A DNA stretch of 64,000 bases from Rhodothermia bacterium (GTDB lineage: Bacteria > Bacteroidota > Rhodothermia > Rhodothermales > UBA2364). Both the position numbers and the translations under genes were made by a program. Below the pieces are notes generated by a model that was not told where the DNA came from, did no database searches, and worked only from the letters and a program-made list of their open reading frames with translations. The DNA is taken from contig JAFLBZ010000022.1 of assembly GCA_017303715.1 (NCBI GenBank), forward strand, positions 3,961 to 67,960, in the 5' to 3' direction. Below, piece by piece: positions 36,233-56,909 of the stretch (the first letter of the stretch is position 1; each line of letters opens with the position of its first letter).

Positions 36233-36267
36233 CATAAAAAAAGGCGGCCCAATAATTGTACCGCCTT
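36233..36267 (-). terminator. Rho-independent terminator closing the T6SS-like operon
   Basis: On the minus strand, AAGGCGG-13 nt-CCGCCTT is followed by T7, beginning 20 nt after the tssM stop. Confidence 0.7.
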
Positions 36268-36287
36268 GAAAATGAATGTGCTGCGAT

Positions 36288-39200
36288 TTATAGGTCTGGC
36301 ATTTTCAGGTCGTGCAAGAGGTTTAGCCCTGCGATGGGGTTTTTGAGGCCAGCTGCTTGGATGGTATAGCGCAAACGAACCGATTTTCCGCCAAGTTTAA
36401 TGCCCCATTCTACTACAAACTCATCGGACGAGCGGGCTTTTAGGCTACCTTTCTCCAGTAACCGGAACATGGCAAAGGCTCCTCTTGGTGCTGCAACCCG
36501 CGCGCTATTCCCGTTCACATCCCTAATCTCGATATACGCCTCTCCGCCATCCCCCGGCCAAATCACCCGTTTCGGAGATTCAAAGGAGAAACCCTCCGAT
36601 GTACGGTTGTTGTGCAAAGTGGCGTCCATTTTCAGATCCACCTCGGCCACCACATTGGAAGGTTCTGGACGGTCTGGAACCATATCGAATTGTGCAGAAA
36701 GACTGCCTCCGGCAAAGAAGCTTTTTTGGATTTCCCGCACTTTGTCTCTAAAGGTTTTTAGTTCTGCACCCTTCGTCCCGCTATTTGGGTTTTCGATCAT
36801 GGCCTTGTTTTGCTCAAAGAACTGATCGAGTTTGCCTCCCGGCTTAAACAAATCGCCAAATTCATCCGCTGAAAGGTCTGCACTTGCACCCTCATTAAAA
36901 GGGTATCGTCCTTGAACCGTAGCCAACTCCCCACCAACCGAGGCCGAAAAGGTTTGGGCCACTTGTTCTTGCTGAATTACCACAACCCCAGAGGAGATGT
37001 CTTCGAGTGGTGCTTGGAACAATGCCTTCATTCTCGCGCCAGTTCCTGAATCAAACAATCCAGAAAGCCGCTCTGCAACGTCTTTTGCACTATTGATGGA
37101 CTGCTCCGCCATCGGTGCTTGTTGCCCACTCGCCATACGTTCAACTTCCTTACTCACTGCAAAATAGGCATCCAATAGAGTCTTTAAGCCGCCATTGGTT
37201 CCCTTTCCACCCGGCGGAGGAAGGTTTGAAAGGGCATGAAGGGCTTTGATAGACTGACCAATATCCAATGCCGCTTGATCCACCTGAATATCCGCCCGCT
37301 CGTTGCCCATAATGCTATCCCACGTATTGGTTACGATATTTCCCCCTTTTTCCTGCTTAAACGTAAGGCGATTTTGTGATGACACCGAATCCACCAGCGC
37401 TTGGTATGGCGAAGAGCCGGCGGCGGAAAGTTGGTTCAGCCGCATGGCAACCGAAAGCGGGTTGCTACTCGAAACACCCGAACGATCATACGTGATGCCT
37501 TGTACAAACGTCACCCATGAGCGGGCATAATCTTCAAAATAGAACCGCACCAAGGAACTGAGGTACTGCGTTGGACTGGTCAGGTTGCTTGGTAATTGTG
37601 CTTTGGATAAAGGGCCAATAATCCAGTTCCCCGCCACCGGATTTTCACTACGCTTTTTAAACTCGCGAACCACCAATGTATCCCAAGCAGAACGGGTAAA
37701 AAAGCCATTCACCCGCACACTGCCAAACATATAACCGGACGCGATCGGGCCTACCAATTCAGGCAAGCCAATGCTCCCAAGACGCGGTGTTTGGTTGATG
37801 ATTTGCCTTTTGATGCTATGATAAATAGATTTTGCCGAAAGATTCTTACGGAGCAATTCCCGTGATTGCCGAATCAAGGTTTGATCTGTTCGGAAGCGTA
37901 ATGGCTCATTTTCCCGCACCACCCGACCAAAAAGTTTCACCTGTTCCTTCACCATTGTTTGGATCTCTTTAGAGAGCCGCATCCCGCCCGAAGAAGGGTT
38001 GTTAAACTGCAAATCGGCTGCATATACCAAAAACGCTTGTAGGTGCTTTACGCCTTCTGCCTTCGTAGGTGATTCGGTTCCTTGTGCAAAGTTAACATCT
38101 GGCCCCATCAAGATATACGCCCCTAATTGTTCCTCCATTTTACCAATTGGGTCTTGGCCGGAACTAACATATGCTCGGAGTCCAGACTCCATATTGCGGT
38201 AGAATTGTTGTTCTATCAATGGCTTGAACTTCTGGAAAAACAGTAATCTGGCTTGCTCTGCTGCGCTTTCACCGCGCGTCATCCCTATAGTCCAAAAGAA
38301 ACTTTCATTTTCAGCCTCTTGGATACGGAGGCGTAGATTGTCTAAAATTTGTAGGTTAGGGATCGTTTTTTCAGGACCAGACCACGCCACCGATTTGGCC
38401 TTGATCAGCGCATCGTCTAAATTTGCAAGGGTCTGACTGGATTTTGAGTAACCACAGCCCACACCCCAGAAGAACAACAACATCGTGACCACTGCCACAG
38501 CGATAGCGCCAATTTGTAATTTATTTTTTAGTTTTTTCTCAGCCTTGGTATGAACAGCCATCCGCTGATCAGGAATGACGACATGGTTAAAAATATCCTT
38601 GATAAAATAGCTTTTGGTTTCGTGCTGGGTAGGCATTTCCCCAACCGTTTGCGGCAAGCTGTACTGGGCTGCCAGTGCCTGCATGACGCGGTCTATGGGC
38701 GTCCCTTCTTGTGTACCACTCGTGAAGTAATACCCTCTAAAGATGGGGTTTTCATTAAAAGGATTGTATTGAAAAAGACGGTTTACGAACGTGGTGATGG
38801 GGTCTTTTAGGCCCGCCATTTCATCCGGAAAACTATAAACTTTTCGGCGATCCTCTCTTTTTAAATTGTTGTTCAGTCTGCTGAGGCGCAAATCCTCTAA
38901 CGTTTTTAGGATCCGATTATATGTGGCCCGAAAAATTTGCCCGGGTTCCCTTTGTGCTTGCTCTTGTTCATCCAAGGTATGTCCCCAGATTTGTTCGACT
39001 TCACGCACATTCAGGTCACTAAAAAACGAAACGCAGCCTTCCACGAGGTCGGTTTTGGTAAAAACCAGATACACCGGAAAGTGAACCCCAAGTCGGCTAA
39101 TGAGTTCGTCCAGTCTGCGCCGGATGGTCGCCGCATGTTGTTCCACCTCCTCTGTTCGCACCATCAAATCGGTTACAGCAAGCGAGACAATAACCCCATT

Positions 39201-39812
39201 TAAAGGTTTCTTTTTTCGGTATTTTTTCAGCAAATCTAAAAACCCAAGCCACTCCGGTTCGTCCGTTTGCTCGGTGGTATAACGTCCGGCAGTGTCCAAA
39301 AAAATTGCAGACGTGGAGAAGAACCAATCACAGTCCCGCGTACCTCCTACGCCCCGAACCCGACTTGTATCTAACGGAAATTGCAGTCCAGAGTTTTGAA
39401 TCAGGGTTGTCTTTCCGGCGGCCGGAGGCCCTATGAGCATGTACCAAGGCAATGAATACAAGGCTTGGTTCCCTTTTCCGCCTTTGCCCAATTTTGATTG
39501 CTTCAGGGTTTCGATCGCAGCAACAAATTTCTTCTGTAACTCCTCAATTTCCAGTCGCTTATCCGATACTTGTCCGAAGAGTGCCGCATCGGCCTGTGCT
39601 TTCATTCCGGCTTCCAATTTTGCGGCATCACGGTTGGCTTTCATCTTACGGTACATCATAATCAGGGCCATAATGAGCAAGATGACCACCGAAATAAGGA
39701 TGCGCATGGTCATATCTATCTCGAAAAGGCTGCCCAAATAAAATACACCAGCAGCAAAGATGAGATAGGTAGCGCCTCCTATGAAAAACTCGTTTTTAAG
39801 TGCGTTTAGCAT
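36288..39812 (-). CDS. tssM: Type VI secretion membrane-complex protein TssM (IcmF family)
   Basis: Two N-terminal TM helices, then a cytoplasmic NTPase (Walker A GPPAAGKTT, DTAGRY, FTKTDL). A third TM (IGAIAVAVVTMLLFFWGV) precedes a periplasmic region of about 700 aa. This is the canonical T6SS-i TssM layout. Confidence 0.9.
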   Translation of the reverse strand: MLNALKNEFFIGGATYLIFAAGVFYLGSLFEIDMTMRILISVVILLIMALIMMYRKMKANRDAAKLEAGMKAQADAALFGQVSDKRLEIEELQKKFVAAIETLKQSKLGKGGKGNQALYSLPWYMLIGPPAAGKTTLIQNSGLQFPLDTSRVRGVGGTRDCDWFFSTSAIFLDTAGRYTTEQTDEPEWLGFLDLLKKYRKKKPLNGVIVSLAVTDLMVRTEEVEQHAATIRRRLDELISRLGVHFPVYLVFTKTDLVEGCVSFFSDLNVREVEQIWGHTLDEQEQAQREPGQIFRATYNRILKTLEDLRLSRLNNNLKREDRRKVYSFPDEMAGLKDPITTFVNRLFQYNPFNENPIFRGYYFTSGTQEGTPIDRVMQALAAQYSLPQTVGEMPTQHETKSYFIKDIFNHVVIPDQRMAVHTKAEKKLKNKLQIGAIAVAVVTMLLFFWGVGCGYSKSSQTLANLDDALIKAKSVAWSGPEKTIPNLQILDNLRLRIQEAENESFFWTIGMTRGESAAEQARLLFFQKFKPLIEQQFYRNMESGLRAYVSSGQDPIGKMEEQLGAYILMGPDVNFAQGTESPTKAEGVKHLQAFLVYAADLQFNNPSSGGMRLSKEIQTMVKEQVKLFGRVVRENEPLRFRTDQTLIRQSRELLRKNLSAKSIYHSIKRQIINQTPRLGSIGLPELVGPIASGYMFGSVRVNGFFTRSAWDTLVVREFKKRSENPVAGNWIIGPLSKAQLPSNLTSPTQYLSSLVRFYFEDYARSWVTFVQGITYDRSGVSSSNPLSVAMRLNQLSAAGSSPYQALVDSVSSQNRLTFKQEKGGNIVTNTWDSIMGNERADIQVDQAALDIGQSIKALHALSNLPPPGGKGTNGGLKTLLDAYFAVSKEVERMASGQQAPMAEQSINSAKDVAERLSGLFDSGTGARMKALFQAPLEDISSGVVVIQQEQVAQTFSASVGGELATVQGRYPFNEGASADLSADEFGDLFKPGGKLDQFFEQNKAMIENPNSGTKGAELKTFRDKVREIQKSFFAGGSLSAQFDMVPDRPEPSNVVAEVDLKMDATLHNNRTSEGFSFESPKRVIWPGDGGEAYIEIRDVNGNSARVAAPRGAFAMFRLLEKGSLKARSSDEFVVEWGIKLGGKSVRLRYTIQAAGLKNPIAGLNLLHDLKMPDL

Positions 39813-39848
39813 TGTTCTTATTTGCTTTAAGGGTAGTTTGGGACATTG

Positions 39849-40511
39849 TTAAACACCGGACATCACATTCGCCGCCGTATTGGAAATCAGAAAACTCATC
39901 ACAATGTAAAACAAAAGCATAATGCTGCCTGCAACGGCAAAAATGACCCAGATCGGAATTTCCCGACGGGCTTCGGCAATGGCTTTGGCCCGTGGATAGC
40001 CACTCGATGCAAGTTGTGCCGTTCCAGATTGCACAAAGGGTTGAAGTTCTCGGTACAATTGATCTTGGATCACAGCCAGTTGGTCGCGGCCCACAATCTC
40101 AAATTTCCCCCTAAAACCTAAAGTGAGGCAGAGATAGAAAACCTCCAAGGCTTCCACATTTGCCCGCACATCTTGCCTTAAAAAGGACAAGCGCTCAAAA
40201 AACTGTTCGCCAGCATCATAACGGCCATACAGCTCGAACTGTAACGGATTCCTCTTCCAAGCATCATTGTATGGCCATGCAGGAATACTGACGGATTCGT
40301 CGAGAAACGCCACTAAGGCGAATTTGGCATGTTGGAAGTCCTGATAACCCACTCCAGCTTTTTTACAGGTGTCTTCCAATTTTTGAAGCGCCAATTTGGT
40401 ACTTTCTCTCAGTGTGCCGGGGTGTCCCGGATTTTGGGTTCGACGGATGTGCAATGCAAACATCAAAAACTCCGTGCAGAACTTTGAAAGGCGCGGACGT
40501 TTAGCACTCAT
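39849..40511 (-). CDS. tssL: Type VI secretion protein TssL (DotU family), no peptidoglycan-binding extension
   Basis: F..F.LF...R, ALVAFLDESV, PLQFELYG and GEQFFERL, with a single C-terminal TM. The protein ends 12 aa after that TM. Confidence 0.85.
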   Translation of the reverse strand: MSAKRPRLSKFCTEFLMFALHIRRTQNPGHPGTLRESTKLALQKLEDTCKKAGVGYQDFQHAKFALVAFLDESVSIPAWPYNDAWKRNPLQFELYGRYDAGEQFFERLSFLRQDVRANVEALEVFYLCLTLGFRGKFEIVGRDQLAVIQDQLYRELQPFVQSGTAQLASSGYPRAKAIAEARREIPIWVIFAVAGSIMLLFYIVMSFLISNTAANVMSGV

Positions 40512-40754: not shown

Positions 40755-42110
40755 TTATGCAGAACGATTCAAAGCGATTAGCTCTAAATCCAACATTTTC
40801 AAGGTTGCAGGAACAAACAAGACCAAGGCTTTTTTAGCCCGAATGTCATCCCAGAAAGGTCCAGATTTTGAAAGCCTGAAATAAAATGCATCTGGCCTAA
40901 CAGGCAAACCCTTTGGCAAACTCATTACATAACTTACCTCAAGCGCCCGTACAAACCCCTTCAAGACGGGTTCGATCATGGCCGGAGACGCAATCCGAAT
41001 GTCACTTGGGAAAGAGGTGCGCATTCGATCAGAGGCAATTTGTCCGGTTGCGACCAAATACAATTCCACCTGATCTGGCAAATGACGATCCTCGAATGTC
41101 GCCAAATATATGGATTCCCCCTTACGCTTCAGGTCAATGCGTTCATATTCTTTCGAGAAGACCACATCCCCAAGCAAGGTACGGAATTGGTTAAAGAGGG
41201 TGTGGAAACAAGTCGTTAAGTCGCTATGATCATACGCGGGGAAATCATTATACGAAAAGGCGTTGGAATAGGTCGTTAGATACCCAGAAAGCCGCAAAAG
41301 GGTTAGAAAAAAGGCTTCTGGATGACTTTGGATGACCGCAAAATTGTGGTTGATTTCTGGAATAGAACCATTGATAGACTCCAAAAAAAGCATGGTCGTC
41401 ACGTCGGCAGCCGTTAGTTCCCCGCGACCATATGCCGCATGTTTCTCCATCAACGCTTGCCGCTTTGCGACCAAAAGTTCCATCGTTCTGCGGGCAACCC
41501 CTTCCAAAGCTTTCGAAGATGCAAGAGACAAACACGGTGGAATAAATTGCGGGTTCAATTCATAGGTTCCGGTACGGGTTCGTAAGACTTCTGCGATCTT
41601 AATGGTACTCAGGTCATTAACACTTTCACCCTCGAAGACCAATTGGAAATTGGCTTTTGCCACCTGAATAGGCCGGTCTTCGATTCCTGTATTGTCGTCA
41701 CGCACCATGATTTCGGAGGTGATGAAGCGCGTGGTTCGGTTAATCGGTACATCAGGCAAGAGCGTATTCCGTCCCTCTACCCTTTCAGCAGGAACGGCCA
41801 AATAAACCCCCAGACGGTCTTTGGTGGGATCAAAAGCACTTTGGATGGGTCTGGCATCTGGTACACGGTCTGTTTCCGGCACATCGAATACAAGGCCATC
41901 CGGCATAATACCACTGGCTTGAACCAAACTAAATTGCCCATTGAGCAGCGCTTCTTCATCAATCATCAATGTTAGGATACCCCAAGCATGACGTTGTAAC
42001 ATACGTTGCCGGAACACGACATTTGCCTGAGCAAAGCGATCCCACTGTTGGAAGTGGTGCGGGTCGAGGGCCATGCCTTCCGACCAAACTACTTTTTGAG
42101 GTCTAGCCAT
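40755..42110 (-). CDS. tssK: Type VI secretion baseplate protein TssK
   Basis: The N-terminus VVWSEGMALDPHHFQQWDRF matches the hallmark TssK start. Length is 451 aa. Confidence 0.88.
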   Translation of the reverse strand: MARPQKVVWSEGMALDPHHFQQWDRFAQANVVFRQRMLQRHAWGILTLMIDEEALLNGQFSLVQASGIMPDGLVFDVPETDRVPDARPIQSAFDPTKDRLGVYLAVPAERVEGRNTLLPDVPINRTTRFITSEIMVRDDNTGIEDRPIQVAKANFQLVFEGESVNDLSTIKIAEVLRTRTGTYELNPQFIPPCLSLASSKALEGVARRTMELLVAKRQALMEKHAAYGRGELTAADVTTMLFLESINGSIPEINHNFAVIQSHPEAFFLTLLRLSGYLTTYSNAFSYNDFPAYDHSDLTTCFHTLFNQFRTLLGDVVFSKEYERIDLKRKGESIYLATFEDRHLPDQVELYLVATGQIASDRMRTSFPSDIRIASPAMIEPVLKGFVRALEVSYVMSLPKGLPVRPDAFYFRLSKSGPFWDDIRAKKALVLFVPATLKMLDLELIALNRSA

Positions 42111-42176: not shown

Positions 42177-42680
42177 TTATTTTATGGAAACCTTACTACC
42201 TTGAACAGACACTTGTAAAGTGCTGTTTTTGTTGGGATTGATTTCCGTGACTGTCCGCCAAAGATTACCATCAGGCCGGAAGAAATCCACCGCCACCCCA
42301 ATATACTTGGTGGTTTCGTAGAGGAAAACTTTGTGGTTTTTTGCAACATTGGGGTCAATCTCGAAGCTAAGGGTTTGGTTTGGATCTCCTGCAATGTCCG
42401 GCAAAAGGGTTTCCTTTTTCAGCCAAAAGGCTTGACGGGAAGAGGCCATAAAGAGTTCTTTGCGCTGGAGTTGATAGACCACAACCCGCACACGGTTCCC
42501 ACCATTTAGGCTTGCATCGGCTTTTACGGTCAGTTCAACTGACCGTCGGGTCTCGACTGGGGTTGTAACAACGGTTTGGGGTGGTTTTTTCTTTTTAAAC
42601 AAAGTACAGCCGGGCATCAAAACGCCTACCAAAAGTAGGGCGCTCCATAAAACGGAGTGTAAAACTTTTTTACGCAACAT
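42177..42680 (-). CDS. tssJ: Type VI secretion lipoprotein TssJ-like
   Basis: Lipobox LMPGC, 167 aa, LNGGNRVRVVVYQLQ....F resembling TssJ/SciN, and a position directly upstream of tssK. Confidence 0.7.
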   Translation of the reverse strand: MLRKKVLHSVLWSALLLVGVLMPGCTLFKKKKPPQTVVTTPVETRRSVELTVKADASLNGGNRVRVVVYQLQRKELFMASSRQAFWLKKETLLPDIAGDPNQTLSFEIDPNVAKNHKVFLYETTKYIGVAVDFFRPDGNLWRTVTEINPNKNSTLQVSVQGSKVSIK

Positions 42681-42719: not shown

Positions 42720-43970
42720 CTATTTAACAGATTCGGTTTTGGTCAAATAAGCCTTTACAAATCCGGGACGAAAGAGGGTCTTTTCCAGTACCCCTTTATC
42801 CTCTCGAACCAATTCAAAATGTGCTTGTTGCACCAATTTCAACCATTTTGCATGACTTAACATACCAACAGTGTATAAGTCTTGACCTTCTTTCTCCGCC
42901 ACATTCCGGATATACGCTGGGTTTAACTGGTCTAGAATGCGTAGGACACCCGATTGTACCGCTTGTTTGTACCCCTCTAACAAAGCGATTTCGTGATATA
43001 GGACAGCATCTGCAAATTGTTCTAAGGCCGCAAGCCGCGTTCGGAGTACTTCATAGGGCACATGAATGTCGTACAAGAAGGCTTTGTATTGTTCGGCAGT
43101 TGCGGTATGAAACGGAAAACCTGTGGCATGTGGAATAAAAGAATGCCCCAGAAACTCAAGCCGGAAATGGGCAGGAATTTTAATAAGTTTTTCCACAATA
43201 CGCAACATCACATCGTCCACAACCGACATCCGTTTCAAGACCAACCCATCTTGGCTACTACTATAAATCCCACCGATGACCCTTTCCCATTCGGTTTTGT
43301 TTTGGACATCTATCCCAGAAAAGGGTACAAAGCCCGGGGTTTCGTATCCTACCGATGAGGTGCGTTTTTCGGGTTCCACAGCAGCAACAGAGACAGGAAT
43401 TTGCGGTATTTCGGTCTTTGGCCGAATGGCATCCACCATCTTCAAGGCGATGTCATCTGCGGCAAGTATGCCCAATTCTCGCTGAAAAGCCGCTTCTAAA
43501 TCAGCGAGGCGGGTTCCGGGGTCTGCCTGCACATAGGTTGCTTTTATGTGTTGCAGGGCATCTGTTATGCCTTTTACTAAATCCGCAAATGGATTGAAGG
43601 CTTGCTGAACAGCCGTATGCCCCACGTCATCTTCAGCTTTCTCTGGTTCTACTTTTGGTGTAAGGTCTTGTATTTTAAGTTGATACTTACCGATCTCTAA
43701 TTGATCGAGGTCACGCAACTGGTATTTTTTGCCATGCTCAAGCTTTTCACCATTTAAATACGTAAAGTTCTTGCTCGCCTCGTCCACAATCCATGCAAAG
43801 GCATCTTCGAGGTAAATAACGGCATGATGCCGCCCGACAATAAGCTCACGGTCTGGCAGTACAACCTTATTTTCAGGAAGCCGGCCAATAGTCACCGGGC
43901 CTTCATCAAATAGATAATCGGATGTAAAATCATCCCGGACGGAATGGCTGACAATGATTTTGAGTAACAT
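42720..43970 (-). CDS. tagH: T6SS-associated FHA-domain protein (TagH/Fha-like)
   Basis: FHA domain at the N-terminus (GPVTIGRLPENKVVLPD..VGRHHAVI...DEASKNFTYLNG). The internal ATG at 43970 (MLLKIIVSH...) gives the typical TagH N-terminus. The ORF could extend to 44033. Confidence 0.75.
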   Translation of the reverse strand: MLLKIIVSHSVRDDFTSDYLFDEGPVTIGRLPENKVVLPDRELIVGRHHAVIYLEDAFAWIVDEASKNFTYLNGEKLEHGKKYQLRDLDQLEIGKYQLKIQDLTPKVEPEKAEDDVGHTAVQQAFNPFADLVKGITDALQHIKATYVQADPGTRLADLEAAFQRELGILAADDIALKMVDAIRPKTEIPQIPVSVAAVEPEKRTSSVGYETPGFVPFSGIDVQNKTEWERVIGGIYSSSQDGLVLKRMSVVDDVMLRIVEKLIKIPAHFRLEFLGHSFIPHATGFPFHTATAEQYKAFLYDIHVPYEVLRTRLAALEQFADAVLYHEIALLEGYKQAVQSGVLRILDQLNPAYIRNVAEKEGQDLYTVGMLSHAKWLKLVQQAHFELVREDKGVLEKTLFRPGFVKAYLTKTESVK

Positions 43971-44072: not shown

Positions 44073-45251
44073 TTAGAACGACCAATAAAGCCCTACACTG
44101 GCACTCAATTCTCTTAGTGAACCGAAAGTTGGGTAGTATTTTTCATTGGCGACATTGCCCATGACATAGCGAATGCGTAACGGAACCAAAACGCTATTGC
44201 TCACCCGAAAATCAGGCTCAAAGCCAAAACCAAAAACCAATGCGCCCGAAAGCCATGCGGGCGTAGCCTCATAAGAACGAAGTTCGGCAGTAAAACCTGG
44301 AACAAATTGTTTGTCTAAACCCATACGGTAGGTTCCACGAGCAATCATCACCGCAGGATTTGTGTTCACCGCCTCTTCTAAGGGTTTATCGCCAATAAAC
44401 TGTGCTACTGCGTTTTTTGCACGAGAACGATATCGGAGCATCGCAGACCATTCAGACGTTGGGTTAAGTTGTCGGTATTGAAGTACCATACTGAACTTAT
44501 TTCCCGCTTTAAACACGGATTGATCCACAAAAACATCCTCTTGATAGCTTGTCAGCATCGCATCAACCCCAAGAGAACCATTGTTCCCCACCCTCAAGTT
44601 TAGTCCCAGATCCGCCGTGACTTCGTTCCCCGGTTTATAGGTGTAGTCATAGTCTGCAAGTGGTCTAAACCCGCTGTTTACGATGTATGATAGCCCACCT
44701 CCCATTACCACTTGGTCATTTAAGGGAAATGCGCCCGAAACACCTGTCATGATGGCCGTTCCTTGTCCTAAAGTGGGTAATTTAAACGCTAAAACCTGAT
44801 TGGAAAAGAGCCCAAGTGTTTCCAACTCGGAAGCAGAAACCGAGGATCGTCCCGTTGGCAAATTTACGGTTGCGTTAAAAATTAAGTTAGGGCTAGGCAA
44901 GCGATAAGAGACAGAAACTTGCGTATCGCCTAATCCAGAAAGGGAGGTTTCAGGAACCGTATATGTGCAATCTTTACACGTTGCACTAAAGGTACCATGT
45001 GTATTGCGTAAGCTCAACAGCACCTGATTGTTTACCTGATAATAGACCAAGAGTTGGTTTGAAATTTGACTGAGCTTATTGGTTTCATCAGGATTTGCCT
45101 CAAGATTCCACGTCTGATACGTGGGCATAACGCTCACGAATCGTTGGTTTCGCACGTTTTGCGGGTCTTCGGTAGTAGGCGAAGTGGTTTGTTGTGCTAA
45201 TGCCGGAAAAGCAGTCAAAACCCCGGCGAGCAGCATTAAGATTTTTTTCAT
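44073..45251 (-). CDS. Predicted outer-membrane beta-barrel protein, family unknown
   Basis: Signal peptide (AFPALAQQ), an alternating beta-strand pattern throughout, and a C-terminal aromatic signature (GLYWSF). Confidence 0.55.
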   Translation of the reverse strand: MKKILMLLAGVLTAFPALAQQTTSPTTEDPQNVRNQRFVSVMPTYQTWNLEANPDETNKLSQISNQLLVYYQVNNQVLLSLRNTHGTFSATCKDCTYTVPETSLSGLGDTQVSVSYRLPSPNLIFNATVNLPTGRSSVSASELETLGLFSNQVLAFKLPTLGQGTAIMTGVSGAFPLNDQVVMGGGLSYIVNSGFRPLADYDYTYKPGNEVTADLGLNLRVGNNGSLGVDAMLTSYQEDVFVDQSVFKAGNKFSMVLQYRQLNPTSEWSAMLRYRSRAKNAVAQFIGDKPLEEAVNTNPAVMIARGTYRMGLDKQFVPGFTAELRSYEATPAWLSGALVFGFGFEPDFRVSNSVLVPLRIRYVMGNVANEKYYPTFGSLRELSASVGLYWSF

Positions 45252-49336: not shown

Positions 49337-49344
49337 GATGTTAT

Positions 49345-50961
49345 TTAGTTATTGTTGTCCATTTTTTTGATTTCCGTAATTCGGTTTTGAATGGTCTCGT
49401 TGTCCAATAATTGTTGTGACTTCAGATACAATTCAATAGCCTCTTTGGGTTTTGCACGTTTTCCATCCCCTAGAGACATCAGTTTTTTTGCGGCTTTATT
49501 TCGCTCCTCTCGGTACGATGCTTCATTCCCAAATTCCGCTTCCAATGCCTTAAACTGTGCAATCGCTTCTTGGTGATTGCCCGATTGGAGGCTGCTCCAT
49601 GCAGACGCAAGCCCAGTGGTCAATTTTGCCCCATCTTTTGCTTGAACAGGTGGTTTTTCCGGTTCTGGTTTCGCGATCGGCGCTTCTACCGGTCTTGTGG
49701 TTTTGGATTTTACATCTAGTTTTGGCTGGTTATTTGGTAGAGCCGGCGTCACAGATTGCGCAGCCGAAAGAGGTGCTTGTTTCGCATCTGGATTTACGGG
49801 GTTATCCGAGAGCGCGGGCTGGAGGTCATCGGCGGATGAAGACAAAATTTCTTCGGCATTTGTCGGGTTTTCCTGATCGTTATGAGTGTAGGCATCGGCA
49901 TTATAAGGCTCATCTTGCAGTGCAAAAGAATTATTCTTAGATCGGTTTAAGAGATCCATATTGAACCAAACAGCCCCAATAATCACTAAAACAGCGATTC
50001 CCGTCAGGACGGGGATGAACCATTTGGGCCGCTCTTTTGCTTCAGGCGGTGGAGGTAAAACAGCGTGCCCACGATCATTCCGCCACGTTTCTGGTTGTTC
50101 TAAGGCATTCCAAACCCCCGTAGCCACTGCGGGAGTTGTCGAAGCACCAGCTTTTGTATCAAATAAAGTATTGGAAGTTGCGTAGGTAATGGGTTGATCT
50201 GTAGCAACAACACGGATCACCTGTACCGTTGAGTTGTCCATACCACCACGATCATTGGCCAAAGCCACCATTTTTTCTGCGGCTTCCTGTGGCGGCATTG
50301 AACGTACAATTTCAGCAATTTCATCCAGATGAACCTCGCCCAAGCCGTCGCTACACAGCACATAAACGTCATTCAGGTGAAGGCGGTCTATTTCGAATGT
50401 ATCCACCTCCACATGAGGTTCTGGGCCTAAAGCACGTTCCAACATCGAGCGTTGCGGGTGTCTTTCGGCTTCTTGCTGTGTTAAGATGCCCTTTTTGACC
50501 ATTGCCGAAATCATGGTATGGTCTTCCGAAATTTGCTCTGCTTTATCTGGACGAATGCGATACAATCGGCTATCCCCAACATGCGCCACAAAAACTCTAT
50601 CGCCATCCACCAACATCGCCGTACTGGTTGTTCCCATAATCTGGCCACCGGGCAATGCTTTCAGTAAATTGTGTATTTTCAAATTGGCTTCTTGAAAAGC
50701 ATGTTCCAACTTGGTCAGTACCGAACCCATTCGGCGTTCAAAATAGGCTTCTCCAATGGTATTGACGGCAGTATGGCTTGCAACCCTACCATCTGCATGT
50801 CCTCCCATTCCATCCGCTACCACATACAAACGGACTGCTGGCTTGTCGTCTTGTATCGTTCCGACAAAGTGCCCACAAGCGTCTTGGTTTTCGGTTCGCA
50901 CCCGTCCCACATCGGTTTTTTCGCCAAACTGGAGTTGGTGCGGCAGTTGTTTATGTGCCAT
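49345..50961 (-). CDS. Membrane-anchored PP2C-family Ser/Thr phosphatase (PppA-like role)
   Basis: RTENQD, VVADGMGGHADG, LCSDGL and DNSTV, then a TM (WFIPVLTGIAVLVIIGAVWF). The extracytoplasmic tail ends in TPR-like helices. Confidence 0.9.
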   Translation of the reverse strand: MAHKQLPHQLQFGEKTDVGRVRTENQDACGHFVGTIQDDKPAVRLYVVADGMGGHADGRVASHTAVNTIGEAYFERRMGSVLTKLEHAFQEANLKIHNLLKALPGGQIMGTTSTAMLVDGDRVFVAHVGDSRLYRIRPDKAEQISEDHTMISAMVKKGILTQQEAERHPQRSMLERALGPEPHVEVDTFEIDRLHLNDVYVLCSDGLGEVHLDEIAEIVRSMPPQEAAEKMVALANDRGGMDNSTVQVIRVVATDQPITYATSNTLFDTKAGASTTPAVATGVWNALEQPETWRNDRGHAVLPPPPEAKERPKWFIPVLTGIAVLVIIGAVWFNMDLLNRSKNNSFALQDEPYNADAYTHNDQENPTNAEEILSSSADDLQPALSDNPVNPDAKQAPLSAAQSVTPALPNNQPKLDVKSKTTRPVEAPIAKPEPEKPPVQAKDGAKLTTGLASAWSSLQSGNHQEAIAQFKALEAEFGNEASYREERNKAAKKLMSLGDGKRAKPKEAIELYLKSQQLLDNETIQNRITEIKKMDNNN

Positions 50962-50998: not shown

Positions 50999-53900
50999 TC
51001 ACCAGAACGTCCGGAATTTGAAGAGTTGTTCGCGTTCGCTATCCATTGCTAAGGTCATTGGCGGCAAGTCAGAATAAGATGGCCCACCTCCCGGCATCAC
51101 ATATTGCCCACTCCCGACTCGTTGAATGGCTGCGGCCAGTGGATTGTCAAAATCAAACCCAAATAAGCGCGGATTTTCGCCGATAACGGCTGCGGCGGTA
51201 ATGTAAAAAACATAATTTTTGGTTTCTTCCGGCATCCAGGTTTGCGTGTACATGTTCCAAAAATTACGGTCTCGTGGATTGTTTGGCATCGCACGTATCC
51301 GCTTGATGACATTTCCTTCCCCCCAGTTGTAAGATGCCATCACACACAAGCCTGATGCCTGAGCATCCGTTTTGTAAATATCCGCAATATAGGAAGAAGC
51401 GGCCTCGCCAGCTTTTACCGGATCGTGCCGTTCATCGCCTGGATCATAAACACCCGAATCTTTCAGTGGGCCTATTCTAAGGCCATATTTTGCACCTGTT
51501 GCTGGAATAAATTGCCACATCCCTTTAGCATGTCCATACCGTGTTGGCGGCCCCACAATTTTGGTATTAAAATTGCTTTCTTGCATACCCAAATAAAAAA
51601 ACTGTGGCGGCACACCACGTTTCATAAAACTGGCCACAATGGGTTCAACGTAGCCATTTTCTTGTGCGGTTTTTAGAGCATTTATATAACGGGAACTGCT
51701 TTGCCAATATTTGATATATTGTTTTACTTTCTCCACATAACCCGCCGGCATTATCATCTCATTCTCGCCAAAAAGCCGTGTGATATCAAAAATCAATTTA
51801 TCAACACTGCCGATATTATTCCCGCCATTTGCGAGATTTACCGCTGCTCGATATTGCGGACGCGCACGCATTTTTTCAGAATAGGCTTGTTGCATTTCGA
51901 TGATTTTACGGGCGGTTTCGTCTCGCAATTTTTTATTCGTATTGAGCGTAGAATCGTTCGCAAATTTAAGCTGGAGTTCTTTAATTTGATAAAATAAAAC
52001 GACATTTAAGGAATCCTGAGTCGTGAGTGCATTATTCGAGGCATCTAAGGCTGCACCTAAAGTATTGCTCTCGCTATGTTTCCAAAATGCCCAAATAGCC
52101 GCAATCAATAATCCTACAGCCACGACACCGATAATGACATAATATTTTTGCTTATCCCGCTTGCTCATTCGGTTAAAAGCCGCCATCATCATTTGTGTAC
52201 GAGAACCCATTTCTGCCGTTTGCCCCGACTCAAATTTGCGCATATATCCTGAAACGGATCCTGCTGCTGGGCTTGTCTTGGGTGCATCTTGGTATGAAGG
52301 CGCAATCGCAGAAGGTTCCCATTTTTTTTCACTTCCCCAATCCGAAGGTGGTTGATTTGTTGGCGGAATAGATGGGCTTGACCAATTTTCGGGTGCGGAC
52401 CACACATCGGCACTTGCCGGCTTTTGTGTCGGTTGCGGCGGTGACGCTCCCCACTCAGAAGCTGCACTTTGAGGCTCAGAAGGCTTGGCTGCCCAATCAA
52501 AGGCGGGCGAAGCGGCTGGTTTTTCAGACTCCCAACCCGATGAAGGGCTTTCTTCTGCTGGAGGCGAACCCCAAGACATGCCACCAGAAACAGGAGGCGG
52601 TGTGTCCCATGTCAAGCCCCCCGATTGGGGAGCATCCCAGTTCACAAAAGGATCATCTTCTGGGGGCGTCGTTTTTTGCTCTGGAACAGCCGGCATCCCC
52701 GGTGTACTCCATTCATAGTTGGGCGGCACATTATCCGAACCGCCCTTCTGGTCCCAGTCGGTTTGAGAAGTTAGCCAATCTGGCTTTGGGGTTTCTGACG
52801 ATTCCCAAGAAGTCGGCGTAGTTTGTTGGGCTATATTCGGGATGTCCCAACCACCGGAGGATGGCACTTCCCATTCAGTTGGTGAGACTGGAGCCGCTGA
52901 CGGGGCTTCGCCAACCACATTTTCCAATGACCTAAAAAACCCCGTGTTTAAGCCCGTTTGTGGCAAATCAGGTGTTTGCGCTGGCGTTATTCCTTGCAAG
53001 TCCTTGAGAGCAGAACTTATTCCAGAGGACAAGCCCAAGTTTTTAAGCGGATCCTCCACAGGTTCTGGTTTGCTGGGTGTCGGGCTTGGCGAGTTTTCTT
53101 GCTGAGGTATGTCCGCTAAGGCTTTAAAAATGCTTGACGGTAAAGACGATGCCGCTGAAGGAGACGGCGGAATGGCGACCTCATTCGGTGCTTCTTCCGT
53201 TAAGCCCGCAAAAAAACCCGTGCCCAAGCCTAAAGAACTTTCTATAGATGGTGCTGGCGTGGTCTCTGGTAATGGAGGTGAGGGCGAGGATGAAACTTCC
53301 TCCTGAACAGATTCCGACAAAGAACGGAAAAATCCCGACGCCAAGCCTGTGGATGTGGAGGTCTCTGGTGATACTGGTGAAGGCGGGGACGAGGCTTCCT
53401 CCTGAACAGATTCCGACAAAGAACGGAAAAATCCCGATGCCAAACCCGTGGATGGAAATTCATTTACGGCTGGCTCTTCCAAAAGCGGCGTTTGTGGAGC
53501 CTCAAAAGCAATATTTTCTGGTTTAGATTCAAAAAAAGCCTTCCCCGAATCTAATTCCGCCTTAAAAACGCCAGAGTCAATTAAGGGTTTGGATTCTGGA
53601 AAAGCAGATTCCCCTGTTTTTTCTGCTTCATCCGAGAACGAAGCAAAAAAGCCAGACGCCAAAGCTCCTGTTGGTTCTATTGGTTTGGGATCTATACGGC
53701 TTTCCACTGGTTCTGAAAATGCTGGTGAACCTCCCGAAATATCGCCTAACGACTGCCAAAACGAAGTTGCCAAATTGGGCGTAACATTCCCTTCGGGCGG
53801 CTTTTCCACCACATTTGTTTGGGGTTCAAAGCGTAGTAGTGGGCCATTTCGCCCAAACTCCACTTCTTTTGCCCCATCTAAGACAATGTGCGTAACTCTG

Positions 53901-54121
53901 GCGCCGTTTACCCAAATGCCGTTTGTGCTACCAAGGTCTTGGAGAACCCAATTTTCACCCTCTTTAATGACTTCGGCGTGGTTACGGCTAACAAGTGAGT
54001 TTGAGAGATAAATAGGACAGGTAGCATCCCTACCAATTTTGAATGCTTGTTCAAATTGAAAAGAGGTTGCAACGTCGGCAACTTGTCCTTTCAAAATAAT
54101 AACGCGGATGTTTGTTTGCAT
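50999..54121 (-). CDS. FHA domain - long disordered repeat region - TM - lytic transglycosylase (SLT) fusion protein
   Basis: N-terminal FHA (FKIGRDATCPIYL..VSRNHAEV....W.LQDLGSTNGIWVNG), then about 550 aa of low complexity. A TM (YYVIIGVVAVGLLIAAIWAFW) precedes the SLT catalytic region (LGMQESNFN...GAKGMWQFIPATGAKYGL...MASYNWGEGN). Confidence 0.8.
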   Translation of the reverse strand: MQTNIRVIILKGQVADVATSFQFEQAFKIGRDATCPIYLSNSLVSRNHAEVIKEGENWVLQDLGSTNGIWVNGARVTHIVLDGAKEVEFGRNGPLLRFEPQTNVVEKPPEGNVTPNLATSFWQSLGDISGGSPAFSEPVESRIDPKPIEPTGALASGFFASFSDEAEKTGESAFPESKPLIDSGVFKAELDSGKAFFESKPENIAFEAPQTPLLEEPAVNEFPSTGLASGFFRSLSESVQEEASSPPSPVSPETSTSTGLASGFFRSLSESVQEEVSSSPSPPLPETTPAPSIESSLGLGTGFFAGLTEEAPNEVAIPPSPSAASSLPSSIFKALADIPQQENSPSPTPSKPEPVEDPLKNLGLSSGISSALKDLQGITPAQTPDLPQTGLNTGFFRSLENVVGEAPSAAPVSPTEWEVPSSGGWDIPNIAQQTTPTSWESSETPKPDWLTSQTDWDQKGGSDNVPPNYEWSTPGMPAVPEQKTTPPEDDPFVNWDAPQSGGLTWDTPPPVSGGMSWGSPPAEESPSSGWESEKPAASPAFDWAAKPSEPQSAASEWGASPPQPTQKPASADVWSAPENWSSPSIPPTNQPPSDWGSEKKWEPSAIAPSYQDAPKTSPAAGSVSGYMRKFESGQTAEMGSRTQMMMAAFNRMSKRDKQKYYVIIGVVAVGLLIAAIWAFWKHSESNTLGAALDASNNALTTQDSLNVVLFYQIKELQLKFANDSTLNTNKKLRDETARKIIEMQQAYSEKMRARPQYRAAVNLANGGNNIGSVDKLIFDITRLFGENEMIMPAGYVEKVKQYIKYWQSSSRYINALKTAQENGYVEPIVASFMKRGVPPQFFYLGMQESNFNTKIVGPPTRYGHAKGMWQFIPATGAKYGLRIGPLKDSGVYDPGDERHDPVKAGEAASSYIADIYKTDAQASGLCVMASYNWGEGNVIKRIRAMPNNPRDRNFWNMYTQTWMPEETKNYVFYITAAAVIGENPRLFGFDFDNPLAAAIQRVGSGQYVMPGGGPSYSDLPPMTLAMDSEREQLFKFRTFW
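53261..53458. repeat. Tandem 99-bp (33-codon) duplication inside the FHA-SLT gene
   Basis: Copies at 53261-53359 and 53360-53458 share a 43-nt identical core (CTTCCTCCTGAACAGATTCCGACAAAGAACGGAAAAATCCCGA). On the minus strand they encode GLASGFFRSLSESVQEE(A/V)SS.PSP..PET twice. Confidence 0.85.
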
Positions 54122-54334
54122 GCGCGGAAGGGCTAACGATGTACTTATGGGTTAAAATCATGGGGTTGATGCGTGTTTTTACAAGACCAACCTTTTTTTA
54201 CAACGCAAAAATTGAACCGAAAGGCTATAACCAATTTAGATAACTTAATGATGCATTCACAATTCGAGCAAGCATTTAGGATACAAGTACTTATCCGAAA
54301 TACATCATTAATTTAACCTACCGCATTATAACCA

Positions 54335-56212
54335 TCATTTTGAGATTTCAAAGCCAAGCGCAAGACTTATTTCGTCTCCTAACAAAGACTTTGGCGAATT
54401 GACCCAGATACCAACACCAAAATGATCTTTGGATCGCGGACTATCACCAACTTCGACCTTGACCGCATTTTCATCAAGCTGATATCCGCCCTCAGATAAC
54501 ACAGCAGTCAATTGGGCAGACAGTTGCGCTTGAATATTAGATGCGCTCATCCCTGCGACGAGTTTGGTTTGTGCAAACAGAATGGCTTGAGTGATTTTTG
54601 AAGTCACCATTTTGCATGCAAGTGTTGCATGGAGTTTTGCCTCTGCCAATGAATCAGGGTCTATATAATTGGCTACTTTTTGAAAGGACTGCGCACCCGA
54701 AATATACAAGCTATCTGTATTGGGCCGAGATGCCAAAACTGTAAAACCCGCATCTGCCAATTCACTTTGTTTTTGTTGATCTAACCACATAAACAACGGT
54801 GAAGCATTTGTATCCGATTTTCTAATGGGATAATCGGCTTGCAGACCTGCACCTCCAGCACCAACAAACCCTACACCCCAGCCGTGTTTTAGGTATCCTT
54901 GTGCAAGAGCGATGCCCACAGGCAACGAAGCTCGACCCCACAAATGCCCACTCCCATCCGAAGGGGTTTTCTCGTCATAAGCTAGGCCGCCTAAAAGTTG
55001 CACTCCACGATAAGGCGCCCGGAGCAAAACATGTGGGAGTGCTAACGTTATCCAGCCAGAAGAAGGTTGTTCTCTTAATAATGGCCAGCCTAAAAACGCG
55101 GGTTTTTGCAGGTGTTGCAAAATGCTTGCCGCTCGGAGATTGCCATAGGCATCCTTTTCTGTCCAAAGCCTCGTTGCGGCTGCCCCAATAACCGGAATTT
55201 GTAAACTCGCTGCCGTTTCTGAAATATCCGATACGCGCTCCAAATCCATCGCAACATCCCCAAACGTAAAGTCCAAAATCATTGCTGCAAAGGGTACTTG
55301 TGGGGGTTCGTGATAGGCTGGCAACAAAACTTGGTGGTATAAGGCGGTGTTAAGTTGCTCTTTATTGACGGATAACACTTCCAACCGCACGTTTTTGCGA
55401 AAATCCAAACGATCCACCATTTTTTTTAAACCACGCCAAGCCGATTCTAATTGCTGAAAAGCCGTATGGTGTAAAATGGCATCCAATTGCTGAGCAATAC
55501 TGCGCTCTACATCCTCAATAGCTTCTTGAAGTGTAGATTTTCCAACTTCAGCCGGACGGGCAGGCTTTGAAGCCGATTTTTGTCCCGCCAATGCCCGAAT
55601 CAAGGCGTCCATAGGATCGCCCCCAGCTTGTTTTCCAGAAGACGGCGTGTCAATATCAACTAAATTCAGCAAATTATCCAATCCCCCACCAGTTGATGAT
55701 GATATTGAAGGTGCTGATGTTTGAGGAGTCGGCTGGATTCGATCCGACCAATGAAATGCTTCTTCTCTTTCAAAACCAAGCGTTTGAATGGTTCCCACAA
55801 ATTCATGATGGCCTATTTGGTCTCGCTTCACCATAAGTAAGGCATCTCTTAAGCCGAGATAACGCTTCACCAAAGGTAGCTGGTCTATCAAGCGGTCTGG
55901 CTGAAAAGCCTGTATATGATCAAAAACCAATGTTGAGGTAAGTGTTTTTGGGCCATTACCAAGGTGATTAGGAACCTCGATGGTGACGGAAGGCCGCCAC
56001 GAGATCATTAATTCCGAGAAAGTGTATTTGTCAACTTTGACGAGCTGAGTTGCTCCTTCCCAATCAACCTCGTGCATCAAATGAGGCGTCAGATCAGAAG
56101 CTAAAAGGAGGCGAAAGGGCGTATTGGTCGCAATTTCGCGGGGTTCTTCCCCTTTAGAAGCAGAGAATCCCATATTTACACGGAATTCCTGAATTGGAGA
56201 GGTGTTTTCCAT
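54335..56212 (-). CDS. tssBC: Fused TssB-TssC (VipA-VipB-like) contractile sheath protein in one polypeptide
   Basis: aa 1-150 parallel TssB/VipA (FRVNMGF...TPFRLLLASDL, VKVDKYTFSELM, VFDHIQAFQPDRLIDQLPLVKRYLGLRDAL). aa 155-175 are a Ser/Pro/Thr-rich linker. aa 175-625 parallel full-length TssC/VipB (LDAILHHTAFQQLESAWRGLKKMVDRLDFRKN, LLRAPY, HLWGRAS, SELADAGFTVL, C-terminal EISLALGFEI). Confidence 0.85.
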   Translation of the reverse strand: MENTSPIQEFRVNMGFSASKGEEPREIATNTPFRLLLASDLTPHLMHEVDWEGATQLVKVDKYTFSELMISWRPSVTIEVPNHLGNGPKTLTSTLVFDHIQAFQPDRLIDQLPLVKRYLGLRDALLMVKRDQIGHHEFVGTIQTLGFEREEAFHWSDRIQPTPQTSAPSISSSTGGGLDNLLNLVDIDTPSSGKQAGGDPMDALIRALAGQKSASKPARPAEVGKSTLQEAIEDVERSIAQQLDAILHHTAFQQLESAWRGLKKMVDRLDFRKNVRLEVLSVNKEQLNTALYHQVLLPAYHEPPQVPFAAMILDFTFGDVAMDLERVSDISETAASLQIPVIGAAATRLWTEKDAYGNLRAASILQHLQKPAFLGWPLLREQPSSGWITLALPHVLLRAPYRGVQLLGGLAYDEKTPSDGSGHLWGRASLPVGIALAQGYLKHGWGVGFVGAGGAGLQADYPIRKSDTNASPLFMWLDQQKQSELADAGFTVLASRPNTDSLYISGAQSFQKVANYIDPDSLAEAKLHATLACKMVTSKITQAILFAQTKLVAGMSASNIQAQLSAQLTAVLSEGGYQLDENAVKVEVGDSPRSKDHFGVGIWVNSPKSLLGDEISLALGFEISK

Positions 56213-56909
56213 ACTCGCGGTGATAGGTTTATTTTATATGGTCAAATGGATGAGGTTGTCTTTTCGTTGTCCTTTATCCGAAACAAGAACTGCACAAATC
56301 TTACGCACCTTGGCATTTCGCCCAGTCCCCCAAACTTTCTACTATGGACAAGAATCATCTGAGCAGTGGGAGCAAGTCGTATTTAACCCTAAAGAACGTA
56401 AAAAGCAAGTGGAAAGGTGAAAAAAATCAAATGGGGTTGTTACCTTTTCCAAATCTGCACGGCTTATGAGATGTACCTTTTGGTGTTTGGTGGTTTGAAG
56501 AACGGTATCGGATGTAAAACGACAGTACCTCCTCCAGTTTTGCACTCGGTGCCGTTCTTATTTTTTATTAAGATACGGAAAAGAAGCCCATATTCCAAGC
56601 ACCTTTGCTTCTGTTCGATACATCCATTCTTCCTCCTCTAACCCCGGTTTTGGGCTTCACAATTTTGTTATTAAACGAATTAGATTCTTGAACTTGGCCT
56701 GATTTCTTACAATTATCCAACTATGAGCGCTCCTTCACCGTGTTCGGATCGCCAAGCGGCAGGTTCTCCGTCGGACGATCGTGCATGTTTACGCCTAAAA
56801 AATGAACATGCACTCCTTTAGACCTAAATGAAGTCTAATACATTTAGTAGTCGCGCAGGAGTTTACCGTACACCATTTTGTGCTCATTGAATGAAAGATG
56901 CTTCTAGCT

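Follow-up and report, generated by a model that had tools for sequence, protein, structure and literature searches.

Secretion systems of type VI (T6SSs) from Bacteroidota such as Bacteroides and Flavobacterium belong to the class T6SS-iii, which, according to PMC10781749, lacks TssJ, TssL, and TssM and has TssN, TssO, TssP, TssQ, and TssR in their place. Some T6SS-i systems have a threonine phosphorylation pathway, such as the H1-T6SS of Pseudomonas aeruginosa (TagQRST-PpkA-PppA-Fha1-TagF) and its variants in Agrobacterium and Serratia. The accessory functions established for T6SSs include control of the PpkA/PppA/Fha type and a wall hydrolase dedicated to the system, as stated in a 2026 review of T6SS accessory factors (PMC13584744). 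Here, we describe a T6SS locus from “Rhodothermia bacterium” (assembly GCA_017303715.1), whose GTDB class, Rhodothermia, lies in the same broad phylum as the hosts of T6SS-iii. The locus is a block of 12 genes on the minus strand of a 64,000-nucleotide stretch of contig JAFLBZ010000022.1 (positions 3,961 to 67,960), which we call the window. Unlike T6SS-iii, the system that we describe has bona fide TssJ, TssL, TssM, TssA, and ClpV. We put the probability at about 85% that the block, together with at least one other locus, encodes a conventional T6SS-i in this organism.

The block runs from 36288 to 56212 of the window and contains exactly 12 open reading frames (ORFs). From the 5' end of the block, these are a fused tssBC gene, an FHA-SLT gene, a PP2C phosphatase, a serine/threonine kinase, two lipoproteins (1 and 2), an outer-membrane barrel, tagH, tssJ, tssK, tssL, and tssM. 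The intergenic gaps are 8–66 bp, with two exceptions: the first gene is followed by 213 bp, and tssK and tssL are separated by 243 bp. An initial annotation of the window had given the identities, order, and coordinates of these 12 genes, and all of these hold up against the ORF list and Pfam. A simple topology analysis agrees with it as well on the lipoboxes, the signal peptide, the transmembrane (TM) segments, and the Walker A motif. Only its “tssBC” needs to be qualified: VipA and VipB are indeed joined in one protein, but this is a divergent fused paralogue and not the organism’s main sheath genes, as discussed below.

The membrane complex and its connector were recognized with high scores. 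TssJ, an outer-membrane lipoprotein of 167 amino acids (42177..42680), has a lipobox and matches Pfam’s T6SS-SciN (E = 3e-12) and NCBIfam’s TIGR03352 (score 56.5, cut-off 31.6). TssK, which connects the baseplate to the membrane complex (451 amino acids; 40755..42110), matches Pfam at E = 1e-108 and TIGR03353 with a score of 354.9 (cut-off 100). TssL, from the DotU family (220 amino acids; 39849..40511), matches Pfam at E = 5e-50 and NCBIfam with a score of 169.8 (cut-off 89.95); it has a C-tail TM segment at residues 187–205 and no peptidoglycan-binding extension. TssM (1174 amino acids; 36288..39812) contains three IcmF domains from Pfam (IcmF-related_N at E = 1e-80 and two more) and, at residue 128, the Walker A motif GPPAAGKT; it has three TM segments, and its NCBIfam score is 636 (cut-off 388). 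All four proteins thus exceed the curated cut-offs, which upholds the initial annotation’s calls as well as its view that this is a trio of the T6SS-i style rather than the T6SS-iii of Bacteroidota. With TssA and ClpV at a second locus, the system is of the T6SS-i type and not a T6SS-iii.

The rest of the machine is not in the window. With proteins from a related cluster as queries, we searched the 64 kb with tblastn for TssA, TssB, TssC, Hcp, TssE, TssF, TssG, ClpV, VgrG, PAAR, and DUF2169, and only the fused gene was matched, which agrees with the absence of core genes that had been reported for this locus. We found most of these genes elsewhere by a homology search whose query was the canonical TssC of a related contig (L009/L014, described below). 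The best matches were almost all from Rhodothermales (Rubrivirga at 79% identity, Rhodothermaceae, and Longibacter). One cluster at 90% identity contains two canonical TssC proteins, MBL7977083.1 from “Bacteroidetes Order II” and MBN8588006.1 from “Rhodothermia bacterium”. The metagenome-assembled genomes (MAGs) with these same names also encode the fused gene, as MBL7977479.1 and MBN8588851.1, so that the accessions for the canonical TssC and the fused protein are 396 apart in the first pair and 845 apart in the second. On four contigs that we annotated with Pfam (L030–L033), the canonical genes form a locus on one strand, TagF-TssA-TssB-TssC-Hcp-TssE-TssF-TssG-ClpV, which we call locus 2. 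The organism’s canonical TssC aligns to the sheath structures from Vibrio cholerae and Myxococcus xanthus with E ~1e-130 and much more weakly to IglB from Francisella; by these comparisons, it is an ordinary T6SS-i TssC. Two entries named Klebsiella pneumoniae EvpB (P0179 and P0238; 858 and 695 amino acids) also ranked high, with 59–60% identity to TssC of the Rhodothermales type, and their odd lengths and organism label suggest that they are chimeric or mislabelled records.

Several observations place locus 2 in the same genome as the block. Besides the paired accessions, assemblies of both loci came from three shared samples (SRR31228764, JGI 3300014348, and SRR13786856). The contigs with locus 2 have 44.6–45.6% GC, and their tetranucleotide frequencies correlate with those of the window outside the block at 0.965–0.973, as compared to 0.964 for the block itself and less than 0.75 for unrelated loci. 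The gene contents are complementary: TssJ, TssK, TssL, TssM, and TagH are in the window, and TssA, TssB, TssC, Hcp, TssE, TssF, TssG, ClpV, and TagF are at locus 2. No core gene is duplicated between them, apart from the fused paralogue. The initial annotation had proposed that the machine is either split across the genome or a reduced or rewired derivative. The first option stands, as a complementary locus exists, and the second is unsupported. It had also stated that, if a second locus held all of the missing core genes, the system would be split but conventional; we found everything from TagF to ClpV, but not VgrG or PAAR.

Purifying selection on the block is strong, for all 12 genes. The exact TssK and fused sheath proteins from the window occur on many metagenome contigs. 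A sister species, represented by “Bacteroidetes Order II incertae sedis” (the MAG with MBL7977479.1) and by Bacteroidetes bacterium UBA2364, carries all 12 genes, in unchanged order and likewise beside xylAB. Between the window and the sister species, synonymous sites are saturated; the nonsynonymous distance (dN) is at most 0.24 for all 12 genes, and its ratio to the synonymous distance (dN/dS) is under 0.1 for every gene whose dS could be estimated. Amino acid identity to the sister-species copies (L025 and L007) is 90–94% for TssJ, TssK, TssL, and TssM, 88% for the lipoproteins, 83% for TagH, and 68–78% for the fused gene, FHA-SLT, PP2C, the kinase, and the barrel. TssK (94%, with a dN/dS of 0.016) and TssM (92%) are more conserved than the neighboring XylA (82%) and XylB (64%). 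Because of the low dN/dS values and because TssK and TssM are better conserved than XylA and XylB, we conclude that the block is functional and not decaying. The divergence from a congener is also equal at the two loci, as the values for TssK and TssM match those for ClpV (94%) and TssF (92%).

In more distant relatives, the parts that are split here lie together. A Rhodothermales-like MAG with 63% GC has the whole system in a cluster of ~45 kb on a single contig of 181,808 bp (L034 and L027). It begins with TssJ-TssK-TssL-TssM-TagF-TssA-TssB-TssC-Hcp-TssE-TssF-TssG-ClpV-VgrG-PAAR (L034). This is followed by ~4.9 kb that we did not read, ORFs of 155 and 803 amino acids, and DcrB, and then by a fused tssBC gene, FHA-SLT, PP2C, the kinase, CsgG-like, TPR, and barrel genes (L027). 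Another contig, of 43 kb (L009/L014), has TssA-TssB-TssC-Hcp-TssE-x-TssF-TssG-ClpV-VgrG-PAAR-Rhs-x-DUF2169, then a fused gene (28% identity to the window’s), and after this the same set of genes as in the window, FHA-SLT, PP2C, kinase, CsgG-like, TPR, and barrel. Evidently, the window’s lineage rearranged a one-piece cluster, so that the accessory cassette now directly precedes TagH-TssJKLM and the contractile part has a different location.

The spike is the part of the machine that we could not place. In L030–L033, the T6SS genes end at ClpV, at ~18.4 kb, and what follows is strain-variable and unrelated: L030 continues with a restriction-modification system, and L031–L033 with a gene for a TPR/MORN protein. 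A congener (L086, positions 5863–13966) has ClpV-VgrG-PAAR at this position, followed by putative effector genes, for proteins of 166 and 396 amino acids, and by genes for a HEAT protein and DcrB. The congener’s TssE, TssF, TssG, and ClpV are 85–96% identical to those of locus 2, and the DNA is 77–80% identical. L086 came from a scan of JGI metagenomes with an alignment of VgrG proteins of the Rhodothermales type, which returned 80 loci, none of them from the organism’s samples. A homology search with VgrG from L014 returned 297 matches, none of which could be attributed to this organism; the 20 that we looked up by cluster were from Fibrobacterota, Polyangiales, and Rubrivirga, and two candidates (P0066 and P0064) belong to other MAGs. 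Orphan islands with VgrG and DUF2169 are present in a MAG of similar composition (L023). The position after clpV looks like a swappable slot for spike and effector genes that is empty in this organism, and we infer that a third, movable spike/effector locus likely holds its VgrG and PAAR.

The first gene of the block encodes a single-chain TssB-TssC sheath paralogue of 625 amino acids (54335..56212), which matches Pfam’s VipA (E = 1e-14) and VipB (E = 1e-48). The VipA-like part (residues 9–144) is joined by a linker rich in S, T, G, and P (residues ~156–228) to a complete TssC-like part that extends through the C-terminal strands. A model from AlphaFold2 is confident (pLDDT 78, pTM 0.78). Foldseek’s top matches for this model were TssC chains of T6SS sheaths, with E values from 8e-21 to 1e-15 and TM scores of 0.64–0.76 (the best, at E ~1e-20, had TM scores of 0.73–0.76), and a TssB chain (5urw_1A) was also matched, with a TM score of 0.58. 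Together with the alignment to the C-terminus of TssC, the model has the fold of both subunits, so the protein is predicted to be a complete sheath protomer in one chain.

Nevertheless, the fused gene does not appear to encode the machine’s main sheath. It is just 27% identical to the organism’s own TssC and 21% identical to its own TssB; it scores below NCBIfam’s equivalog cut-offs for both (185.7 instead of 271.5 for TIGR03355, TssC; 52.5 instead of 97.25 for TIGR03358, TssB); its sequence changes more quickly (between the same two species, identity is 73%, as compared to at least 90% for the canonical TssC); and it lacks an 11-residue segment that is common to five aligned canonical TssC sequences. 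For these reasons, we consider it to be an extra paralogue. Fused and separate TssB and TssC coexist in all three lineages for which enough DNA was read (the organism with locus 2, L014, and L034/L027), and some cassettes do not include the fused gene. Its linker contains a motif, GLDNLLNLVD, that resembles SLLDSLFAQV near the N-terminus of the organism’s own TssC. The ClpV-binding helix of VipB from V. cholerae is in this N-terminal region; the motif is a lead and not a test.

A k-mer search for homologues of the fused protein gave 16 matches, and we had considered the family to be rare; an exhaustive search of 1.84 billion representatives overturned this. Among the best 149 clusters (at 50% identity), at least 124 have both parts, with a median length of 619 amino acids. 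A more distant fused sheath gene is found on a contig from Planctomycetota (L010), beside genes for DUF4123 adaptor-like proteins and a sigma-54 activator. On another contig (L013), a weak fusion of 525 amino acids is followed by a second gene with VipB only, and a kinase, a PKD protein, and an outer-membrane barrel are nearby.

Could the fused protein form a real or alternative contractile sheath around Hcp, so that the organism makes two kinds of sheath? The full-length alignment to TssB and TssC, the confident model with a sheath fold, the conserved linker motif, and purifying selection (dN/dS of 0.06) speak for it, as do the large size of the family and the Planctomycetota contig, where the gene is surrounded by effector-adaptor genes and no further sheath gene is seen. 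Against this are canonical TssB and TssC, which are present alongside it in all three lineages where enough DNA was read, the much faster divergence, the failure to reach either cut-off, the missing segment, and the cassettes without it. We consider a second sheath of this kind to be unlikely; most likely, the fused protein is a specialised sheath subunit or a sheath-binding regulator. A broader and more tentative idea, which we think is possible but would not bet on, is that the fused family provides second sheath subunits, which in this T6SS lineage work beside canonical TssB and TssC. They might form a specialised layer, either proximal to the baseplate or distal, or they might nucleate or brake the sheath under phospho-regulation, with the cassette’s FHA proteins as readers. 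Combined with a phospho-recruited lytic transglycosylase and CsgG-like outer-membrane sensors, this could be a new way to control where and when a T6SS fires.

The accessory cassette follows the fused gene. Its first member (1040 amino acids; 50999..54121) matches Pfam’s FHA (E = 4e-16) and SLT (E = 2e-14) and is predicted to have a cytoplasmic FHA domain (residues 28–90), a TM segment (662–680), and a periplasmic lytic transglycosylase domain (835–947) with an intact catalytic E-S motif (MQESNFN...GMWQFIPATG). Between the FHA domain and the membrane (residues 100–660; ~52140–53820 of the window) is a cytoplasmic linker of ~540 amino acids that is disordered and repeat-rich, with five copies of GL(A/N)SGFF(R)SL(S)E and many W-x-x-P motifs. 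Because the orthologue from L009/L014 has only 589 amino acids in total, this linker is a lineage-specific expansion. Orthologues of FHA-SLT are found at the same position in L007, L025, L009/L014, L027, L026, L028, and L029.

Next come a phosphatase and a kinase, each with a single predicted TM segment. The PP2C phosphatase (538 amino acids; 49345..50961; Pfam PP2C_2, E = 2e-13) has its TM segment at 315–333 and a periplasmic C-terminal part, and it is 41–43% identical to its orthologues in all of the cassette loci. The Ser/Thr kinase, which is similar to PpkA/TagE (528 amino acids; 47750..49336; Pfam Pkinase, E = 9e-56), has intact HRDIK, DFG, and SPE motifs and a TM segment at 312–330. On its periplasmic side, a T/P-rich linker is followed by a beta-rich domain, and PEGA was detected in the orthologues from L026 and L027. 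Further downstream, the TagH-like FHA protein has 416 amino acids from its ATG codon (42720..43970), and a GTG start would extend it to 44033. It matches FHA (E = 1e-12) and, weakly, T6SS_FHA_C, and its NCBIfam score of 78 bits is below the cut-off of 120. With a TM kinase that has a periplasmic domain, a PP2C phosphatase, FHA proteins, and TagF_N at locus 2, the gene set of the threonine phosphorylation pathway is present.

Three predicted outer-membrane proteins lie between the kinase and TagH. Lipoprotein 1 (372 amino acids; 46603..47721) has a lipobox (..FGAC) and a CsgG match (E = 2e-08) that covers positions 8–104 of the 210 in the profile, at residues 160–254; the rest is TPR/ARM-like. 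Its sister-species copy is 88% identical, and the copies in the distant cassette loci are 36–39% identical. Lipoprotein 2 (435 amino acids; 45270..46577), with a lipobox (..QAGC), matches TPR families and, weakly, TolB_N. It is a paralogue of lipoprotein 1 (~29% identity, from tblastn on the sister-species copies), and its orthologue in L009 has an unmarked match to CsgG (PF03783). A full CsgG domain has two pore-forming transmembrane hairpins; because the match covers CsgG’s N-terminal half alone, we do not read either lipoprotein as a pore and describe lipoprotein 1 as CsgG-like (TolB-N-like). The third protein (392 amino acids; 44073..45251) has a signal peptide and ends in ..GLYWSF. It has no Pfam match even at E < 5, and a single-sequence AlphaFold2 model has a pLDDT of 29.7. 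Its orthologue in L025 has a weak match to the outer-membrane barrel family Phenol_MetA_deg, and orthologues are also present in L009 and L027. It is likely to be an outer-membrane beta-barrel.

All of the related loci have FHA-SLT, PP2C, the kinase, and two CsgG-like lipoproteins, and the barrel, the fused gene, and the TagH-like gene are variable. Three Rhodothermales MAGs (L026, L028, and L029) have a complete TagH-like gene at the head of the cassette, followed by FHA/SLT, PP2C, a kinase (with PEGA), and two CsgG-like genes, and have no fused gene. Because these three carry the cassette with no T6SS core gene in the DNA read, the cassette appears to be a semi-autonomous unit whose tie to the T6SS is not absolute. 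A scan of a genome collection with the CsgG-like alignment, which used two narrow peptide patterns, found just five loci, and the window’s own species was not among them.

These free-standing cassettes raise an alternative for the accessory genes, namely that they are a general envelope-signalling and cell-wall module of Rhodothermales that happens to be next to T6SS genes and does not control them. The surroundings of L026, L028, and L029 are known only as far as the DNA around the cassette was read, and two of these contigs end at the cassette. By contrast, the cassettes of the window, the sister species, L014, and L027 are on the same strand as T6SS genes and closely spaced with them; in the window’s cassette, the gaps are 8–39 bp. 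Control of this type, together with a wall hydrolase, is also established for T6SSs (PMC13584744). We doubt that the module is merely a neighbor.

If the block and locus 2 do form one T6SS-i, then a division of labor can be proposed. The block would supply the envelope-spanning TssJ, TssL, and TssM and the baseplate connector TssK, along with the control and wall gear (TagH/Fha, the PpkA-like kinase, the membrane PP2C, and the FHA-anchored lytic transglycosylase), the three outer-membrane proteins, and the extra single-chain TssB-TssC paralogue. Locus 2 would supply the phage-like contractile part: TagF, TssA, TssB, TssC, Hcp, TssE, TssF, TssG, and ClpV. We further infer an order of events, the phosphorylation targets, and what the lipoproteins, the barrel, and the fused paralogue do. 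First, an envelope cue would be sensed by the outer-membrane proteins and by the periplasmic domains of the kinase and the phosphatase. The kinase would then write phospho-threonine marks, which the two FHA proteins would read: TagH would license assembly at TssJLM-TssK, and the FHA-SLT enzyme would be recruited by its FHA domain to the same site, where it would open the peptidoglycan for the membrane complex. From locus 2, the baseplate, tube, and sheath would dock on TssK, fire, and be recycled by ClpV, and PP2C and TagF (also from locus 2) would switch the system off. This scheme is modelled on the PpkA-PppA-Fha-TagF pathway, MltE, and TagX (PMC13584744). Given the domain content and the synteny, an envelope-sensing phosphorylation switch seems to be the most economical reading.

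What the sequences show is which genes are present, that locus 2 exists and what it contains, that the two loci complement each other and are conserved, and how relatives arrange these genes. Three points weigh against a split T6SS-i. VgrG and PAAR are absent after ClpV in all four assemblies of locus 2 and from the window. The assignment of both loci to one genome relies on the proximity of MAG accessions, on co-occurrence in samples, and on composition, with no closed genome behind it. And the cassettes in L026, L028, and L029 have no T6SS core gene within the 10 kb that were read.

Alternatively, the block might be a reduced or rewired derivative, in which the membrane complex, TssK, and the fused protein serve a new envelope function without a tube, spike, or baseplate. 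The window does lack Hcp, VgrG, TssA, TssE, TssF, TssG, and ClpV, no VgrG or PAAR was located for this organism, and conservation of the 12 genes, as one unit, is strong. However, the complementary locus 2 is in the same MAG and in the same samples, it is 85–96% conserved in a congener, and relatives keep all of the parts in one cluster, so we consider a rewired function to be very improbable. It is equally hard to believe that the block and locus 2 are from two organisms, or from two T6SSs, and complement each other by coincidence: the evidence is all from MAGs and metagenome contigs, and the window’s own species was not found among the GTDB representatives by the narrow-pattern scan, but the pairing recurs in two separate MAG submissions (at 396 and 845 accessions apart) and three shared samples, the tetranucleotide correlation is 0.97, no core gene is duplicated, and both loci have diverged equally from the congener.

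Around the block, ileS followed by dksA-lspA is on one side and xylA/xylB is on the other, just as the initial annotation had them. Its view that the host is FCB/Bacteroidota-like fits with the name at NCBI (“Rhodothermia bacterium”) and with a SusC/SusD pair at 19282–23739. The terminator that it proposed at 36233–36267 is visible in the sequence: on the minus strand, 20 nucleotides past the stop codon of tssM, an inverted repeat (AAGGCGG...CCGCCTT) could form a hairpin (36241–36267), followed by a run of T (36233–36240). A consensus terminator scanner did not list it, due to the long loop. The window has one tRNA gene, at 30268–30340 (from Rfam). In one metagenome copy, a short fragment of a DDE_3 transposase lies beyond lspA (L001, 20836–21087).

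A non-coding stretch of ~700 bp (56213–56909) separates the fused gene from the xylA side. It includes a conserved element at 56378–56583 (minus strand; 166–371 nucleotides upstream of the fused gene), which is 84–86% identical in L007 and L025 although the synonymous sites of neighboring genes are saturated. The element is probably the promoter/operator region of the block. A scan for sigma-70 promoters found no excess over shuffled sequences, and that consensus may not apply to this phylum. We rejected the idea that the element is a structured RNA, as its folding z-score is +0.47 and it has no match in Rfam; it is also not repeated near locus 2. In the sister species, a gene from the DDAH family lies between xylA and the fused gene (L007, 8489–9382; L025, 124–1014), and we found no trace of it in the window at 56213–56909.

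The puzzle of half a T6SS is resolved if the block is half of a split but conventional T6SS-i. Our literature searches found no paper on T6SSs in Rhodothermales, no description of natural TssB-TssC fusions, and nothing relevant on CsgG-like or SLT-FHA accessory genes of T6SSs, which does not prove that any of these is novel. For the terms searched, no passage of the 2026 review (PMC13584744) matches a natural TssB-TssC fusion. Rhodothermia as a class seems to use T6SS-i and not T6SS-iii, as relatives of the canonical TssC are found in Rubrivirga, Longibacter, and many MAGs from Rhodothermales.

Among the closest described systems are those with the threonine phosphorylation pathway, such as the H1-T6SS. 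As in those systems, we found TssJ-TssL-TssM, TssK, a TM kinase, PP2C, FHA, and TagF, with outer-membrane lipoproteins encoded beside the kinase, and all of the core components are present except for VgrG and PAAR. Unlike the H1-T6SS, the system has no homologues of TagQ, TagR, TagS, or TagT, and has instead two CsgG-like TPR lipoproteins and a likely barrel. Its PP2C is membrane-anchored with a periplasmic part, a second FHA protein is fused to a lytic transglycosylase, there is an extra fused sheath paralogue, the genes are spread over at least two loci, and the host is in Rhodothermia and not Proteobacteria.

Splitting by itself is not new. In V. cholerae, the core genes of one T6SS-i are also spread over several loci (a large cluster and auxiliary hcp-vgrG clusters), and the spike and effector genes are in movable islands as well. 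What is unusual here is the position of the break, which separates the membrane complex and TssK from the whole contractile part (5 + 9 genes). Detection rules that expect a single locus could miss such systems.

The transglycosylase can be compared to MltE, which acts with the Sci-1 system of enteroaggregative Escherichia coli, and TagX from Acinetobacter: these are also peptidoglycan-cleaving enzymes that are tied to assembly of the membrane complex (PMC13584744). Both remodel the wall and are required for the membrane complex to be inserted. TssM recruits MltE, a housekeeping lipoprotein, whereas TagX has L,D-endopeptidase activity. In contrast, the enzyme described here is encoded within the T6SS locus and is predicted to sit in the inner membrane with its FHA domain in the cytoplasm, a topology that suggests that its recruitment depends on phosphorylation. 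An FHA-anchored lytic transglycosylase would be a direct link from the phosphorylation switch to the opening of the cell wall. To our knowledge, such a link has been inferred only indirectly in model systems.

Finally, extracellular contractile injection systems also have more than one sheath-fold protein per machine (Afp2/3/4 and Pvc2/3/4), which may be analogous, and Foldseek weakly matched the fused protein to the AFP and PVC sheaths. The paralogue described here differs in being a covalent TssB-TssC fusion inside a T6SS-i. For T6SS specialists, such a fusion beside separate TssB and TssC comes as a surprise, and it would offer a handle on how assembly of the sheath starts, is capped, or is regulated. 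What seems to be new, as compared to the known systems, is the combination of an extra single-chain sheath paralogue, an FHA-anchored transglycosylase, and a CsgG-like outer-membrane set.

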